A stretch of DNA of 64,000 bases from Candidatus Thorarchaeota archaeon (GTDB taxonomy: Archaea > Asgardarchaeota > Thorarchaeia > Thorarchaeales > Thorarchaeaceae). The position numbers were made by a program, and so were the translations under genes. The notes below the pieces were generated by a model that worked only from the letters and a program-made list of their open reading frames with translations, ran no database searches and was not told the DNA's origin. Below are positions 2-57,709 of this stretch, one piece after another; the first letter of the stretch is position 1; every line of letters begins with the position of its first letter. The stretch covers positions 32,001 through 96,000 of the forward strand of contig JAWOEX010000032.1 of NCBI GenBank assembly GCA_046482545.1, in the 5' to 3' direction.

Positions 2-3000
2 ACAGACCCCACACTCGAAGATACTGATGGCGATCAGCTCTCCGATTTTGTCGAAATTCATATGACACTAACAGACCCTCTTGTAAAGATGTATAATTCC
101 ACTCACACCGACTACGAAATTGATAGCGACGGTGACGGTATCATCAACGGTGACGAAGTTGACATATACGATACTTCACCAGGTGATGCTGATTCGGATG
201 ATGATGGAATCTACGATGGGCTTGAGGTATTCAGCTATGGTACAGACCCTCTTGATAACGACACTGATGGTGACGGCCTAACTGATTTCGAGGAGATATA
301 TGTATACTCGACTGACCCACTCTTAATGGATTCTGATGGTGATAGACTGTATGATGGCGTCGAAGTTAACCAACTGGGAACTGATCCTTCGAAGTATAGC
401 ACATATGAGAATGGTACATCGGACTACGATTTAGATATGGATGGAGACGGTTTGAGTAATGGGATCGAGATTTATGGCTACGGCACCGATCCCACAAACA
501 ATGATACTGACGGAGACGGCCTTTCAGATGGTGTCGAGGTCAACTACGCTGGATCGAGTCCAACCGACAAAGATACAGATGATGATGGTATCAGTGACTA
601 TGACGAGTATGTGATTTATGGTACAAATCCAAGGAACCAAGATTCTGATGCCGATGGACTGACTGATTATGACGAGATATATGTCTATGGCACGTCTCCA
701 ATTCTGTGGGACACAGATGGAGACGGGCTCAGTGATTATGATGAAATTAACGAATACAATACAGATCCGACTATGAAGGACTCTGATTCTGATGGTATAG
801 GTGATAAGAAGGAACTCGACTTAGGTACGGATCCGAATTCGAATGACACAGACTCCGACGGTCTGAGCGACTGGGAAGAGTGGAAGATTTACGGTACAGA
901 TCCTACCACTGCTGATGGTGACGATGACGGCCTTAATGATGCGGAAGAAATCGCTTTGGGGACTGATCCCGACAATCCGGATTCAGATTTTGATGGGTTG
1001 ACCGATGGTGATGAGGTGAACGTCTACGGTACAGACCCCTTGGATGAAGATACAGACAATGACAGGTTATCTGATTATGATGAAATTTTCAATAGTCACA
1101 CAGACCCTACATCTGCAGACACTGATGGCGATGGAATCCCCGACGACTTGGATGACGAAGATGGTGATGGCCTAAATAACTATCTTGAGATTTATCTTTA
1201 CGAGACCAATTGCACACTTATCGATAGCGATTATGATGGATTGTCTGACTACTATGAAGTTTTTGTAAGTGAGACAGACCCGAATGCGGCAGATACTGAT
1301 GGAGATGGGCTAGATGACTGGGATGAACTCTTCTACTACTCAAGTGACCCCAATATGATTGATACAGACTCAGACGGGCTCGATGATGGTGAAGAGGCTC
1401 TCACGTACCATACTCTCCTGAATAATTCCGATACGGATGGGGACGGGCTTTCTGATTACGATGAGATAAAGGTATTCGAAACCGATCCGCTTGAGCCTGA
1501 CTCGGATGACGACGGACTCGAAGACGGGGAAGAACTCAATATCTATAATACCGACCCGCTGTCTCCAGATTCTGATAATGATGGGTTGCTGGATTCACAG
1601 GAAGTGAATCTGGGAACTGATCCACTTGAGCGCGATACCGACCAAGATGGCCTGACTGATTTTCAAGAAGTAAACATAACCCTTACAGATCCTCTTCTTT
1701 ACAGTACCAAAGGAGACGGCACTCCGGATTCGGAGTGGGACATGGATTCTGACCGACTTACGAATTGGCAAGAAATAGTGCTAACGAAGACTGACCCCCG
1801 TTGTAATGATACGGATGGCGATGGCATTCTTGATGGTGATGATGATGAGGATCGAGATTTGCTTACCAACTATGAAGAATGTGTTCTGACAGAGACGGAT
1901 CCCCGCGACAAAGATAGCAACGATAATGGCATTTCGGACTTCAATGATGATGAAGATGGCGACGGGTTGACGAATGGGGAAGAAGTCCAGACCTACTTCA
2001 CAGATCCGCTTGATGAAGACACAGACGGCGATGGTCTGACTGACTATGAGGAGGTGGAGGAGTACTCAACAGATCCTTTGAGCAAGGATACGGATGTCGA
2101 TGGCTTATCCGATTTTGAAGAAGTGGAAGAATATGGAACCGACCCCCTCTGCAACGATACTGATGGCGATTCGTTGAGCGATTATGAAGAGGTCTACCTA
2201 ACCGATACTGACCCCACTACCAATACAACATATGGGGATACTCTAGACTCAGAGTATGATTCTGATGGCGATGGTCTCACGAATATAGACGAATTACGGA
2301 TTTACGGTACAACCGCGCTTGACCCAGATACTGATGACGATAATCTGGAAGACGGTTATGAAATCGAACTTGGAACAGATCCTCTTGATGAGGATTCGGA
2401 TTCAGACTCTCTACTGGATGGTGATGAGGTCTATATTTACGGCACAGACCCACTGAGTAACGATACTGATTCTGATGGTCTGTCAGATTATGAGGAAATC
2501 AGTGTTTTCGGTACAAACGCAACAGCTCCAGATACTGACGGCGATCGATTGAACGACTATGACGAAATTATCGTCTACGAGACGGATCCTCTGAACCCTG
2601 ATTCGGATGACGACGGTGTTGATGATTATGATGAAGTAATTACTTGGGAAATTGATCCCTGGGCAATAGATACAGACTCAGACGGACTTACAGATTACTT
2701 CGAGATTATGAATTTTGGATTGTTAGGTTGTCATCCAGGCAATAATGATACAGACTCAGACGGACTCGACGATGGAGAAGAAGTCAACGTGTACGGAACG
2801 GATCCCAGCGACGAAGACACAGATGGAGACGGCTTAACAGACTATGAGGAGGTTGTTATCTATGGGACCGATCCTCTGCGAAAAGACACAGATGGAGATG
2901 GCTTACCGGATGCGGATGACTTTCAGCCCACGATTCATTGGGCAATCCCATTAGGTGTTGCGACAGTTATGCTGGCTGTAGTTGCATTAGTTGCCAGACG

Positions 3001-3373
3001 AATTAAGAAAGAGATGGAAGTGGAAGAGTACATCACCAAGGCTGAGCCCACCAGTCCTGGCCTCGAAGCAGGTATGGACGTATCGGTCGAATATAAGATT
3101 CGCGAAGGCATGGTGGTCTTTGGTGTGGTTGTGAGAAACGGGTCTGATATGGGGATGCGTAATGCTCAGGTCGTACTTGGAGTACCAGAGCTTACTGAGA
3201 CGATTAAAAGCAAGCATATTGGCACCATATCTCCTGGCGAATTAAGCGTCAATGAGATTGAGTTTGAGTTGCAACCAGGGGCTAAGGGCGAACTGGTCGG
3301 GATGCTGGAATATGACACTGAAGAAGGCGAGCATAGAGTTGTAAACCTCCGTCCAGTAGAAATCACGGCTTAG
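2..3373 (+). CDS. Giant acidic Ca-binding repeat (thrombospondin type 3-like, TDPxxxDTDGDGLxDxxE) surface protein with C-terminal TM helix and cytoplasmic Ig-like domain; 5' end lies outside window
   Basis: Frame is open from base 2 ([21 protein letters not shown]), so M at 62 is internal; dozens of ~23-aa DxDxDG repeats; hydrophobic [21 protein letters not shown] followed by RRIKK. Confidence 0.9.
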
Positions 3374-12355: not shown

Positions 12356-13318
12356 CTACAGTGAGGCACCACAGTTCTTGCACTTGCTTAGTCCATGCCT
12401 ATTTTTGTGGCCACAATGCGGGCAAATCACAAGGTATGCTATACCGACCTCTGCTTCCTGTGAATTTTCTTGGGTAGAGCTAGTGGCTTTCTCCGGCCCA
12501 GATTGGGATTCGGTTAAGTAGGAAAAAAGCGGTTCGGATGAATTGGCCTCTCCATTCCCAATCACCGGCGATGATTCAATCCAGAGATATGCATCATCTT
12601 GCGTAACATCGAGCCTCCTGCCTTCCACCTTGCAAAGAGTCGCTAGCATGTCATAGTACACATATTCGATGCCCCAAGGCGCAAGCCTATTCTCGGACCC
12701 TCGGCTATCTACTTCGAGCACGCGAAACACTGTATTATTCTCTTTAAGATAGCTCAGTATGGGGCGGAGAGCCATCTCGATATAATGCCTGACTTCCTCA
12801 ATCGTATGATTGTGTTTAGAACGTTTTGTGATTACGAAGCCAAGATACTCGAGGTCCTTCCCGCGTTCTTGAATCATATAGCGGATTCCATCAATCAGCG
12901 GCTGTATCTGCCCCGATAATGCATCACCGAGAACACCGGAATCTGAGGGGTCGATAGTCACAAGGACAGCAGATACATTTTCAACCGCACGCTTAAATTT
13001 GGGTGTCGTTCGGGTATAGTCCTCTCCCCGCATATCTCCCACCCGAAGAGTCATCCCGCTGAACAACCAGCCTAGCTTTACTATTGAACCTTTGAACGAT
13101 ATTCTCTTCTTGAATTCTAAGGGATAGGCGTATTCTTTTACTGTCGGGGGAAGCGGCTTGCCTGATACCATCAAATCAATCCAAAGGCCATAGTCGTCTG
13201 GAAGCTTGTCGAGATTCGCCTCTATCCAGCCCATTTCTGAAAGTCGGTGAATGGAGGCCACCAAGAAGGTAGTTTTTCCCGTCCCCTTATTCCCCAGTAG
13301 TGCGATTGATTTGCCCAT
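12356..13318 (-). CDS. TRAFAC-type P-loop GTPase with C-terminal zinc ribbon
   Basis: G1 GNKGTGKTT, G2 PPT, G3 DMRG, G4-like TKRS; C-terminal CPHC-x10-CKNC; start at MGKSIALLG inferred. Confidence 0.8.
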   Translation of the reverse strand: MGKSIALLGNKGTGKTTFLVASIHRLSEMGWIEANLDKLPDDYGLWIDLMVSGKPLPPTVKEYAYPLEFKKRISFKGSIVKLGWLFSGMTLRVGDMRGEDYTRTTPKFKRAVENVSAVLVTIDPSDSGVLGDALSGQIQPLIDGIRYMIQERGKDLEYLGFVITKRSKHNHTIEEVRHYIEMALRPILSYLKENNTVFRVLEVDSRGSENRLAPWGIEYVYYDMLATLCKVEGRRLDVTQDDAYLWIESSPVIGNGEANSSEPLFSYLTESQSGPEKATSSTQENSQEAEVGIAYLVICPHCGHKNRHGLSKCKNCGASL

Positions 13319-13523
13319 AAGCGGTACACCCGACTCTCTTTGGATATTAATCACGATTAGAATAATAAGGATTGTTTGTCTGAGGAATAAATTCAATCAT
13401 CTGTGAGAACGGAATAAGTTTATCTTTGAAATAGTTGATGCTTGAATAACTGGACATGGCAGAACGCAGTTGATTGCCTGTCGGTTCATGTTTGCATAGA
13501 ATGATTGAGAATCTCGAGGGCTT

Positions 13524-14288
13524 GTGTGTATGTCAGTGTCTCTACCCGATGCAAAGAAGAAAGTAAGCGTTCTAGGTTGTCCTGGTGTTGGGAAGACGAC
13601 GTTCCTAGTGGCAGCAATTCATCAGCTTGACAAGGCTGGATGGGCCCGCGCAGATTTGGAGACACTACCAGCTGAATACGGCACGATAGTTGATAATCTC
13701 GTGGCTGGTAAACCGCTAGCTCCTACAGTAGGCCTTCATGGTTATGTATTTGATTTCAATGATTTCACATATCGGAACTCTGAGGTGAAGGCGGGCTGGT
13801 TTGGAAGTGTTAGCGTGCGCCTTACCGACCTAAGCGGAAAAGATTACCAACACAGTGCATCGCTTTTCAAGCAATCACTAAATGATGTGTATTCAGTGCT
13901 CATTTTGATTGATCCTGCACGGGAGCCCACACTCAAGCATTCTTTGGCTGGTCAAATGGGTCCGATAGTTGAAGCGATTAGGTATATCGCAGTATATGAG
14001 GACGATATCGAGCATATCGGGTTTGTCTTCACAAAGGCATTGTTGCACAATCACGAGTACGGGCGAATGGTTTTGATACTTGAAGAACAGCTTGCACCCG
14101 CTCTAAACAAAGCAAGGCGTGAGGGCATTGATATCAGCTTCATGGAAATTGACAGTAGAGGTCCTGATGAAACACTTGAACCGTTAGGTATCCGGCGCGT
14201 ATTCTATGATGTACTGAGTCGAGAATGCAAAGTCAAGAACGAGAGACTAGATGTAACTGGTCCACTTGAAAGGAGAATTGCAGCATGA
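13524..14288 (+). CDS. TRAFAC-type P-loop GTPase, paralog of the divergent upstream gene
   Basis: G1 GCPGVGKTT, G2 APT, G3 DLSG, G4-like TKAL; shares LSGQI/LAGQM and EVDSRG/EIDSRG blocks with 12356-13318. Confidence 0.8.
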   Translation: MCMSVSLPDAKKKVSVLGCPGVGKTTFLVAAIHQLDKAGWARADLETLPAEYGTIVDNLVAGKPLAPTVGLHGYVFDFNDFTYRNSEVKAGWFGSVSVRLTDLSGKDYQHSASLFKQSLNDVYSVLILIDPAREPTLKHSLAGQMGPIVEAIRYIAVYEDDIEHIGFVFTKALLHNHEYGRMVLILEEQLAPALNKARREGIDISFMEIDSRGPDETLEPLGIRRVFYDVLSRECKVKNERLDVTGPLERRIAA

Positions 14289-15226
14289 GAGCCTATATCC
14301 ACCTACCATTTCAACAGAAACCCGCAGTACTCGGAAAACCGGGTAGAGATGTTATGGAGTCCATACAGTCAAACACAGTACCTCGTAATCTGCCGGTTGA
14401 TTGGTTCAAGGATGCCAATCTGAAGATACTCAGTGCGTTTTGGGCGGGGGAATCCGAACTTGCGATAGCGGTAACGGTCCGTGGAGACAAAGATAGGGCC
14501 GGAAGGGAGAATCTCGTATCTCATGTGGTCGTGTCTGATCAGGAACACTTCCTAATGGATCCTTTGAGTTCACTCAATGTACTTGCTTCGATGTATTCTG
14601 ACTCCCAAATCGCTACGCCTGAAGGACTACTACGAGTTCTGGGTGCTTCGAACAGCATTGTCAAGGACGATGATGGCTGGAATTCCTGGATAAAGAGGAT
14701 ACGCGGCTTTGACCAGGTTTTCTTGAAGAATGCTTTGGGGACAGTTGCAAACAGGCCCTACACCTACTTAGCCTACTCCGAGGAAGACCGGCTTTTCGAC
14801 CTCCTCAGAGTCATCTTCATGATCATCCAGCCGTTTATGGGCAGGAAGTGCTCTTTTGTTTCACTTTTTGGCACATTTGATGAACCTGATAGCTTTGTGA
14901 TTCGTGCGTTTCGAAAAGAATCCAACAAGCTTGATTTGGCAACGGATGAGTTGGATTCCATCAAGGATCAGAATGCATCACTCATTGACCTTCAGGACGA
15001 AAAGATTCTCGAAAATCGGGAAAAGAAGAAGTTACCGGAAGTACTACTCAATGAGCTATACAATGACCCTTGGGTGCGGTTGGGTAGGTATGAACATCTT
15101 TCCATTCTTAGGTACATACTGCAGAAGAAAGCTGCTGGGAATGAAAAGGACCTTCATCCATATTCTGAACAGCTCTTGGAAACCCTCCGGCGACTCAAGC
15201 GAATTGATAAAGAAAGTATGCACTGA
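14285..15226 (+). CDS. GTPase-associated protein, DENN-like / GAP1-like
   Basis: ATGA overlap with upstream GTPase; DRAGRENLVSH motif; cDENN-like pattern (LLRVIFMIIQPF..SFVSL..EPDSFVI..SLIDLQDEKI). The CDS is secure, the family call is inference. Confidence 0.55.
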   Translation: MRAYIHLPFQQKPAVLGKPGRDVMESIQSNTVPRNLPVDWFKDANLKILSAFWAGESELAIAVTVRGDKDRAGRENLVSHVVVSDQEHFLMDPLSSLNVLASMYSDSQIATPEGLLRVLGASNSIVKDDDGWNSWIKRIRGFDQVFLKNALGTVANRPYTYLAYSEEDRLFDLLRVIFMIIQPFMGRKCSFVSLFGTFDEPDSFVIRAFRKESNKLDLATDELDSIKDQNASLIDLQDEKILENREKKKLPEVLLNELYNDPWVRLGRYEHLSILRYILQKKAAGNEKDLHPYSEQLLETLRRLKRIDKESMH

Positions 15227-15243
15227 CTGTGAGGCATCTACTG

Positions 15244-15945
15244 ATGGCGAAAACCATAGTTCTGCTAGGCCCTCCCAAGAGTGGAAAGACATTCTTCAAG
15301 ACTGCTTTCAGTATTGCACTTGAAAAAGAAGGCTGGGGCCATTTAACCCGCATTCTTCCATCATTGGGTCATATCGTGGATTATGCGCTTGCTGAACAAA
15401 CCCCTCCCTACCAAGGCAACAAGGTCCCCGAATATCATGAACTCGAACTAAGAGATGGAACCTCAGTTGAACTAATCGAAGTAACAACCCCTATAGAGAT
15501 GAACAAGCGGGCTGTCAAGAGATTCAAGGATTTCATTGGGAAAGCTCATTGCTTGATTCTATTCTTTCGGTCTATTGAACGAGTGAATCGCGTTACAGCT
15601 GATGACGTAGGAGTTACGGAAGAGCGGAAATACATGGAGCACGAGGTAATGGACCAAGCCAAATTTATGCAGCCACTACTCCTGAACGAACTGAAACCAT
15701 GGTGGAAATTCTGGCGTCGGATGAACCGACTAATGGTTGTGACCACGCTTTGGAAGGGAGACGCCTTGGGTGCCTTACAGTTCGAACAGGATGTAGCGGA
15801 AGCGATGCCTCAGGCTATGCGTTATTTGGGCAAACGCGGCGTAACATATTCTTTTCACACGCTGGATTTTTTGCGCGATGACGGGGGTGTTGCAATTGAG
15901 GAGGTTGAACCTCTAATCCCGCAGATAGTGCGAGCGGTGGAATAG
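15244..15945 (+). CDS. Degenerate P-loop GTPase paralog (probable pseudo-GTPase)
   Basis: GPPKSGKTFF..ALEKEGW matches paralogs; no DxxG G3 (EVTTP) and no TK at G4 (TTLW); alternative GTG start at 15229. Confidence 0.65.
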   Translation: MAKTIVLLGPPKSGKTFFKTAFSIALEKEGWGHLTRILPSLGHIVDYALAEQTPPYQGNKVPEYHELELRDGTSVELIEVTTPIEMNKRAVKRFKDFIGKAHCLILFFRSIERVNRVTADDVGVTEERKYMEHEVMDQAKFMQPLLLNELKPWWKFWRRMNRLMVVTTLWKGDALGALQFEQDVAEAMPQAMRYLGKRGVTYSFHTLDFLRDDGGVAIEEVEPLIPQIVRAVE

Positions 15946-55405: not shown

Positions 55406-57709
55406 TTGGATTCACCTAAGATACTCTTTGAAGTAGAAGACGATATTAGCACTAGTGCGTCAGCCACAGGCGACCTTACAGGCTCAACTAGGTCAGAGAT
55501 TTGCACAGGTGGACGGGATGGAATTCTCCGGTTATACAAAGCGAACGAGGATCACCTAGACTTTCTGGCACAGTCATCTGTTGAAGGAAGTATCCTATCC
55601 ATCAGCGTAGAAGATGCAAATAACGATGGCCAAATGGAGATTATTGTTGGTCGGAGTGTAAGTGGTTCTGACGTACCGGGCGAAGCAGGAACCCTTCAAG
55701 TATATCGGTATGCTCCCAGCGGTCAAATTGAACTTATTGCGGAACAGCCAATTGGTCGCTTTGTAACTTTTGTTGAAGTTACCGATGTTACTGGTGATGA
55801 TAAGAACGAGATTATCGCAGGCGGAAGTGATTCAACGCTTAGAGTCTTCAAGATGGGTTCTGATAACGTGCTTGAAGAGATTGTTTGCTGTACTCTTGAT
55901 GATATGCCTCTCTGCATTGGCACGTGCGATGTTATTGGCGACGAAATCGATGAGATTGTAATAGGCAATCGAGACAAGACATTGCGTGTTTTCAAGGTTA
56001 GAGGAAATTCAGCCGACGAAATCACGATACTAAATCTTCCGAGTCCAGTCATCTCATTAGCAGCAGGAGACATCCTTGGAGACAGGAAGATGGAACTAGG
56101 GGTTGTGACTCATGACGGTTCCATCAGGATATACCGAAACGAAGAGAGTGAGTTGAACCTATTTTCTAAGCTCAAGCATGTCGATGCGCTGTCAATTAGA
56201 ATGGCAGAAATCAATGCTGACCACATGGATGAAGTCATTATTGCAAATTCTAAGCAAGAAATTGTCTTCTATAGTGTTTATATGGCTGAGCTGAAGAAAC
56301 TTGCTACTACGGATATTGGAAATAAGATTCTCTCCATAAGCGTAGGTGATGCAGGGGGCGATGAACGAAAGGAAGTTCTGGTAGGTGTTTCAGATGCCCC
56401 TCTCAAGATTCTGGAAGGACTCTATGAAATAATACCTCGGTTTGAAGTTAGTCGTGAAGCTGCTGCCGGTGAAGAGTTGAAAGGGACCATTACTGTCACT
56501 AATGCTACGGATAAAGAAATTTCAGGCATAAAGGGTAAGATTTACTGGTTTCCGAAGGACAACATGGTAGTTGAACCCAATGAGCTTGCTTTTGATATCG
56601 GTCCTAATGATTGCAAATCTGTTCAAGTTCATCTCACGCCGGTTGAAGAAGGCACAGTTGTTGTACGCCCTATTGTTCTCATGTGGACTGACAAGTCTGG
56701 GAATGTCAAGCAGGTAACAACTCCCGAGACAGCGATATCGGTTGAGGAAAATGAGGCAAAGGCTTCCCCTGTAGCTGCACCTGAGGTGAGTCTGGATACC
56801 TCTTCTGAATCACAGGAAGAAAATGTGGAACTATCTTCTTCTGCAAGTGATCGAAGTACCGGATTTGGCAGGGTGGCAAAGGAAAGCGAAGTAGAAACCG
56901 AGGATACCTACACTGAAAGTGAAAAGCAGCAGCTGGAAGAAGCATCAAAGATGCTGGATTCCATCTTCGGCGAGACAGAACCTGTGGGTCCGACTGGTGG
57001 CGATTTGAAGGCGATGACAGAAACGGTAACTGAGCCTGAAGAAGAGGTAGCTCCTGAAGAACCTGAAGAAATCGAGAGCGAACTAGTAACTGAGATACGA
57101 AATCGAGAACCTAAGCCGTTACCGCCTGGTAAATCCGAGAACGCCTATGAATACCTTATGAAAAGCATGATTGTTGGACCTGGTGCAGTTGGTAAGACCG
57201 CGCTCGTAACTCGCTATACAACTGGCAGCTTCGAGAAGGATTACAAGACCACAATCGGTAGTCAATTCGCTGTGAAACTAACTCATATCTATCCGGAAGA
57301 GAAGGATCACGCTATTGGTTTAAAGCTGCAGGTGTGGGACGTTGCGGGGCAGGCTCGTTTTCAAGCTGTGCGCAAGATGTACTACAGTGGGGCAGCAGGA
57401 ATTATCCTAGTGTATGACGTAACTAGACGAAGATCTTTCGCTCAGCTTCCACAATGGGTGGAGGAAGCGTACGAATCAATTGGCCGTCAGGTACCTGCAC
57501 TTGTTGTGGGAAACAAGATTGATCTTCCTGATAGAGCGGTTGATCCATACGAAGCGAAGGAATGGGCCGAGAGCAATGGATTTCTGTACATGGAGACCAG
57601 CGCTAAGACTGGCGACGGTGTAGCTGACATGTTTACAATCCTAGCCAACATGATGTATGAAGATGCGCAGGAAACAGCAAAACAGAAGCAGGAAGATAAC
57701 CAGATTTAA
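55406..57709 (+). CDS. Beta-propeller + Ig-like + acidic linker + Rab-like small GTPase fusion
   Basis: Seven D-x(3-5)-E[ILV]xxGxxD-type blades; GTPase from ~57146 with GPGAVGKT, YKTTIG, WDVAGQARF, YYSGA, NKID, ETSAK. Confidence 0.88.
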   Translation: MDSPKILFEVEDDISTSASATGDLTGSTRSEICTGGRDGILRLYKANEDHLDFLAQSSVEGSILSISVEDANNDGQMEIIVGRSVSGSDVPGEAGTLQVYRYAPSGQIELIAEQPIGRFVTFVEVTDVTGDDKNEIIAGGSDSTLRVFKMGSDNVLEEIVCCTLDDMPLCIGTCDVIGDEIDEIVIGNRDKTLRVFKVRGNSADEITILNLPSPVISLAAGDILGDRKMELGVVTHDGSIRIYRNEESELNLFSKLKHVDALSIRMAEINADHMDEVIIANSKQEIVFYSVYMAELKKLATTDIGNKILSISVGDAGGDERKEVLVGVSDAPLKILEGLYEIIPRFEVSREAAAGEELKGTITVTNATDKEISGIKGKIYWFPKDNMVVEPNELAFDIGPNDCKSVQVHLTPVEEGTVVVRPIVLMWTDKSGNVKQVTTPETAISVEENEAKASPVAAPEVSLDTSSESQEENVELSSSASDRSTGFGRVAKESEVETEDTYTESEKQQLEEASKMLDSIFGETEPVGPTGGDLKAMTETVTEPEEEVAPEEPEEIESELVTEIRNREPKPLPPGKSENAYEYLMKSMIVGPGAVGKTALVTRYTTGSFEKDYKTTIGSQFAVKLTHIYPEEKDHAIGLKLQVWDVAGQARFQAVRKMYYSGAAGIILVYDVTRRRSFAQLPQWVEEAYESIGRQVPALVVGNKIDLPDRAVDPYEAKEWAESNGFLYMETSAKTGDGVADMFTILANMMYEDAQETAKQKQEDNQI

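Follow-up and report, generated by a model that had tools for sequence, protein, structure and literature searches.

Introduction

GTPase-associated protein 1 (GAP1), including its GAP1-N2 type, belongs to the 'GTPase-centric' DO-GTPase systems, which computation has predicted in hundreds of prokaryotes but to which no fold or mechanism was assigned (Kaur, Burroughs, Iyer and Aravind 2020; PMC7159879; Pfam PF20013, PF20014). That description mentions neither DENN nor longin domains. Here we examine a protein of 313 amino acids (aa) from Candidatus Thorarchaeota archaeon, encoded at positions 14285-15226 of a 64,000-nucleotide stretch (assembly GCA_046482545.1, contig JAWOEX010000032.1, positions 32,001 to 96,000; hereafter the window). 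An initial annotation had read it as a stand-alone DENN-like protein between GTPases. Our comparisons indicate that it is, with high confidence, a divergent minimal GAP1 of the N2 type, composed of N and M domains and a short helical tail.

An origin in the eukaryotic stem was first described for DENN and dDENN (PMC3521125), before Asgards also proved to have them, and a 2026 paper remarks in passing on unnamed DENN-like folds in bacteria and archaea (PMC13392464). A literature search, with subscription papers mostly outside its scope, found no paper joining GAP1 or the secretion protein TagF with DENN or longin, and no experimental test of DO-GTPase/GAP1 systems. The system type (known from computation since 2020) and Asgard DENN proteins are thus not new; the present locus contributes a minimal variant and, on the basis of predicted structures, a well-supported link between folds.

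Family assignment

The open reading frame (ORF) starts with an ATG that overlaps the stop codon of the upstream GTPase gene A (ATGA), and the likely ATG of the downstream gene B lies 17 bases past its own stop. Differences from three close orthologues at codon positions 1/2/3 (60/27/165, 44/23/136 and 64/28/165) show a third-position excess, and the ORF is therefore a real gene under purifying selection. An overlapping ORF of 139 aa in another frame (14904-15323) was rejected, as codon-position divergence favours the 313-aa frame. About 12 homologues of 302-323 aa were found, sharing 23-80% identity, after one short repeat match (P0011) was left out; the NCBI names of the close ones are Thorarchaeota, Lokiarchaeota or Promethearchaeia. 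The gene is rare in the phylum (7 of 400 genomes), and searching for related loci with the single protein as query added no further genomes.

Neither the protein nor eight of its homologues matched Pfam, all scores falling below the cut-offs, that of GAP1-N2 included. As an independent test set we used eight Asgard proteins chosen solely by the Pfam GAP1-N2 model. Their profile aligned with the 313-aa family in hhalign over residues 18-249 (probability 94.4, E 9e-8), and ranked the 313-aa ORF first among the 8,374 ORFs of the genome; the HMM rankings agreed reciprocally. In the ESM Atlas the protein groups with GAP1-N2/GAP1-M clusters (features 0.96; template modelling (TM) score ~0.63-0.70). 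The GAP1 resemblance suspected in the initial annotation is therefore real. The GAP1-C domain is absent, the protein stopping 70 residues past the M-like core, and there is no membrane anchor or effector domain; a length-free homologue search returned no longer fused forms.

NCBIfam, PADLOC and PDB sequence searches gave nothing relevant, a viral fold search gave nothing at E<=0.001, and an ESM Atlas feature search with the GAP1 families left out gave no usable match. Weak matches of the helical tail to cytochrome bc1 subunit 7 (E about 0.5) were rejected as chance.

Pfam-positive GAP1-N2 systems also occur in other Asgard lineages, as stand-alone proteins of 327-341 aa and as forms of 1100-1550 aa with two DO-GTPases (L043:4348-6800, L044, L046; L047:290-8957; L048, L049). 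In L048 and L049 they lie opposite a pair of short coiled-coil genes and a gene of 384 aa, which by eye resemble ESCRT-III and Vps4.

Table 1 Features of the GAP1-like gene and the adjoining GTPase genes (positions refer to the window)
Feature	Residues	Positions	Strand	Details
GTPase C, divergently transcribed paralogue of A		12356-13396	-	Likely start ATG 13315; G3 DxRGED; C-terminal zinc ribbon
GTPase A, DO-GTPase relative		13530-14288	+	252 aa from ATG 13530; stop overlaps GAP1 start
Minimal GAP1 (GAP1-N2 and GAP1-M like), predicted longin-DENN fold		14285-15226	+	313 aa; profile, feature and structure comparisons
N-lobe, longin/uDENN-like	1-121	14285-14647	+	b1-b2-a1-b3-b4-b5-a2-a3
VTVRG...VVSD hairpin	63-85	14471-14539	+	Translation
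Loop G67-x2-D70-x2-G73-R74-x-N76	67-76	14483-14512	+	Model, alignments; strands b4 (59-66) and b5 (77-84); R74 candidate arginine finger
Alpha/beta core, GAP1-M/cDENN-like	about 122-243	14648-15013	+	Structure matches, alignment
ALGTV...IIQPF stretch	150-184	14732-14836	+	Translation
SFVSL	190-194
EPDSFVI	200-206
SLIDLQDEKI	232-241			Helical tail follows
Helical tail	244-313	15014-15223	+	No invariant residue; end poorly modelled
Pseudo-GTPase B		15244-15945	+	Likely ATG 15244 (233 aa); PWWKFWRR motif; most of P-loop retained, G3 DxxG and G4 missing

Predicted fold

The motifs quoted in the initial annotation are all found in the translation (Table 1), and the predicted structure has both the longin-like N-lobe and the alpha/beta core on which that annotation had staked its DENN reading. 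The best structural matches of the core are the cDENN domains of FLCN, C9orf72/SMCR8, DENND1 and DENND10. A longin plus cDENN fold is accordingly judged highly probable, and in these models GAP1-N corresponds to a longin (uDENN) domain and GAP1-M to a cDENN-type alpha/beta domain. The reading of the tail as dDENN has partial support: its first two helices align with dDENN regions, in alignments extending to residues 285-295, but the end is poorly modelled (predicted local distance difference test <50 near the C-terminus). 'Stand-alone DENN-like' likewise describes the fold, but the protein is a GAP1 first, since solved DENN structures reach TM scores of only 0.26-0.39 to the model, as against the GAP1 values above. 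Sequence-profile searches of the protein against DENN families gave no match, and Pfam DENN had no match above cut-off in 301 genomes of the phylum.

A conserved arginine in the longin lobe

G67, D70, G73, R74 and N76 of the b4-b5 loop are invariant in 13 of 13 homologues, down to 23% identity. When Pfam-positive GAP1-N2 proteins are aligned together with the family, G73-R74 are retained in 90% or more of the sequences, and the motif is therefore not a chance resemblance. The longin lobe holds 14 of the 19 invariant residues, the remainder (Y161, Y164, S193, R207 and A231) lying in the alpha/beta core. In FLCN and SMCR8, a D-x-x-A-R motif at this place has the same Asp-to-Arg spacing, and Arg147 of SMCR8 is a structurally confirmed finger on the longin domain. 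Monomeric DENN GTPase-activating proteins (GAPs) have been defined by two features of the longin domain, a surface that is conserved and an arginine finger lying between b4 and b5, with a pattern of conservation unlike the surface of the guanine nucleotide exchange factor (GEF) DENND1B (Avl9 preprint; 10.64898/2026.01.05.697756). R74 agrees with this definition in being a conserved b4-b5 arginine within a conserved longin patch, the comparison with Avl9 R116 being at the level of the loop. Its position thus favours a GAP over a GEF.

The GTPase cassette

Eleven further loci repeat the gene order A, GAP1, B, with three of these truncated at contig ends. Among 86 genomes of the family, the 6 with a full-length match to the 313-aa protein are also the 6 with one to the GTPase; as these genomes are related, the co-occurrence is not a statistical test. 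The cassette is a three-gene DO-GTPase unit with an optional fourth gene, the divergent paralogue C. In one genome (G322) the second GTPase match, probably C, lies on a different contig. GC content is flat along the cassette, giving no sign of recent transfer, and a scan for bacterial promoters and terminators returned chance level only. The cassette loci, several of which lie on short contigs, share no conserved FNIII, GASH, membrane or effector gene in their flanks of 1-8 kb.

GTPase A has the G1 (GxxGxGKT), G2 (PT) and G3 (DxxG) motifs, with a G4 of TK that lacks the aspartate. GTPase C also keeps G1, G2 and G3 and has a G4 without aspartate. The Walker B glutamate that marks DO-GTPases is present in C and in one A; it is Lys in this A, and Asp, Gln, Arg or Ala elsewhere. 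GTPase C may be the catalytic client of the 313-aa protein. In a tree, A and C form separate supported clades; within this genus A, since the duplication, has Lys/Arg after the G3 glycine, and C keeps Glu together with the ancestral motifs. Pfam DO-GTPase matches of the neighbouring GTPases are weak (E 0.0005-0.2), and a profile built from A and C picks up, at E about 1e-10, the GTPases that neighbour Pfam-positive GAP1-N2 genes. In B, G3 and G4 are lost in 9 of 9 aligned copies and parts of the P-loop in two of the nine. Its (P)W(W)KF(W)R motif (residues about 148-155) is kept across homologues and is a candidate membrane- or partner-binding segment. The protein is therefore embedded between P-loop GTPase-type genes, as first annotated, but the downstream one is a degenerate pseudo-GTPase and the flanking genes are relatives of DO-GTPases and not Rabs.

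Two further loci differ in their surroundings. An E2-CBASS-family gene (L039:330-749, minus strand) lies upstream of one homologous cassette, a single case and possibly a defence neighbourhood. L045:1-3480 (genome G289) shows another layout: after a distant homologue (E 1e-10) come a 282-aa gene and a protein of 619 aa that has zinc fingers of the DnaJ type and ends in a GTPase-like part.

Proposed function and alternatives

The 313-aa protein probably binds a GTPase of its own cassette. A complex prediction with GTPase A scored 0.00 with controls not folded, and weighs neither way on binding. What it does once bound is a closer call: the most likely reading, to which we give about an even chance, is that it is an arginine-finger GAP acting on this GTPase through Arg74. 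This reading is favoured because conservation centres on the longin lobe, the b4-b5 Gly-Arg is shared with GAP1-N2 proteins, and both the Avl9 definition and SMCR8 Arg147 point to the same element. In such a scheme, the cognate GTPase (A and/or C), loaded with GTP, would be bound by the longin lobe, and Arg74 would enter the active site of this GTPase and turn it off, as Avl9 does with Arf1. Pseudo-GTPase B would probably pair with the active GTPase as a scaffold, and by family analogy the cassette could serve as a threshold switch in conflict or stress responses, with the effector encoded elsewhere.

It is possible, if somewhat unlikely, that the same family and fold serve as a non-catalytic scaffold or adaptor, the conserved loop binding the GTPase pair or another protein. 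This would parallel TagF, a top structural match over both lobes, in which conserved surface loops of the N-lobe are protein-binding sites for type VI secretion (T6SS) parts (bioRxiv 10.64898/2025.12.08.692957). Kaur et al. go no further than calling GAP1 a GTPase-associated core component for deploying effectors (PMC7159879), and the GP motif of the FLCN, NPRL2 and SMCR8 longins (PMC12290439) is not evident in the b1-b2 region of the 313-aa protein. Against a scaffold, the single arginine that is invariant in both the 313-aa family and Pfam-positive GAP1-N2 proteins sits exactly in the b4-b5 loop, and neither an effector nor any additional partner shows conservation around the cassette.

A second alternative concerns ancestry only and is compatible with any mechanism. 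The likeness to DENN could be convergent, combining a PAS/longin-like lobe with a generic P-loop-like alpha/beta domain. We consider this unlikely, and common ancestry of the 313-aa protein with DENN correspondingly probable: each lobe independently selects the matching DENN sub-domain in the same order, the alignment continues into the dDENN helices, and the protein is GTPase-linked with its arginine in the same loop.

A DENND1-type GEF loading GTP onto the cassette GTPase would suit the tripartite fold, but is improbable given that conservation is centred around R74 and not on the DENND1B-type surface; moreover, a GTPase without the G4 aspartate may release nucleotide unaided. Finally, the protein could be a eukaryote-type DENN of Asgard membrane trafficking that acts on Rab/Arf-like GTPases, of which the Rab-like domain at 57146-57709 is one. 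In favour, the genome has 24 Ras-family matches with no Pfam DENN or folliculin match, and Asgard Roadblock/Rab/DENN operons are published (bioRxiv 10.1101/2020.10.19.343400). We nevertheless consider this very improbable: the rare gene always adjoins relatives of DO-GTPases, the proteins closest to it are bacterial GAP1s, and the Rab lies 42 kb off, is unlinked in other loci and is not matched by the A and C profile, so that neither the cassette loci nor that profile link the two.

Other genes in the window

That Rab-like domain (Ras E 1e-46) is the C-terminal part of a 767-aa protein (55406-57709, plus strand) with an FG-GAP/BBS2-BBS7-like beta-propeller, an Ig-like middle and an acidic linker, a BBSome/coat-like architecture in an Asgard. 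At 62-3373 (plus strand), a 1103-aa protein carries 28 bacterial TSP3 (calcium-binding) repeats and is probably a surface protein.

Implications

Extending the argument to GAP1-N/GAP1-M of prokaryotic DO-GTPase systems in general, as both true longin-DENN homologues and arginine-finger GAPs, is tentative, and we hold it to be somewhat less probable than not. If it were so, the longin-cDENN fusion and its GAP chemistry would predate eukaryotes and would not be restricted to Asgards, TagF would be a GTPase-free offshoot, and the effector-less Asgard cassette would represent the minimal working unit. Comprising three or four small soluble proteins, with a predicted fold and a residue that may be catalytic, the cassette offers a small, testable prokaryotic model of longin-DENN switch control, bearing on how these systems switch and on whether the GAP chemistry of DENN proteins predates eukaryotes.

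Comparison with known systems

TagF of the A. baylyi T6SS (PDB 9T0N) has the same two-lobe fold as the 313-aa protein; it binds Hcp and TagZ, with no GTPase and no C-domain homologue reported (bioRxiv 10.64898/2025.12.08.692957). The operon of Liu et al. (bioRxiv 10.1101/2020.10.19.343400) shares an Asgard host and a DENN-type gene beside a GTPase. By its description it is set apart, being reported from most Asgards and including a Roadblock gene as well as a Rab-like GTPase, whereas the present cassette is rare, lacks Roadblock and carries DO-GTPase relatives. The Rab GEFs DENND1A/1B have a like tripartite fold, aligned over 208-249 residues, but at a root-mean-square deviation of 5.8-6.2; here conservation is on the longin lobe and no Rab is linked.

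Avl9, DENND6A (bioRxiv 10.64898/2026.01.05.697756), FLCN and SMCR8 are similar in having a longin, a cDENN and a helical tail, with a b4-b5 arginine and a conserved longin lobe. They differ in sequence (about 10% identity, no profile link) and in lobe orientation (TM <0.4), and the client predicted here is a DO-GTPase relative and not Arf or Rag.

Relative to the systems of Kaur et al., the 313-aa protein falls below Pfam cut-offs and lacks GAP1-C and membrane segments, the second GTPase is degenerate, the zinc ribbon is C-terminal on the divergent paralogue, and in GTPase A the Walker B Glu is replaced by Lys. The lack of a conserved FNIII, GASH, membrane or effector gene further sets the cassette apart. 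In common with the GAP1-N2 systems, however, it has an N domain followed by an M domain, the DxxGR..H hairpin, a GAP1 gene lying directly downstream of one of DO-GTPase type, multiple GTPase paralogues (two there, three here) and a patchy spread.
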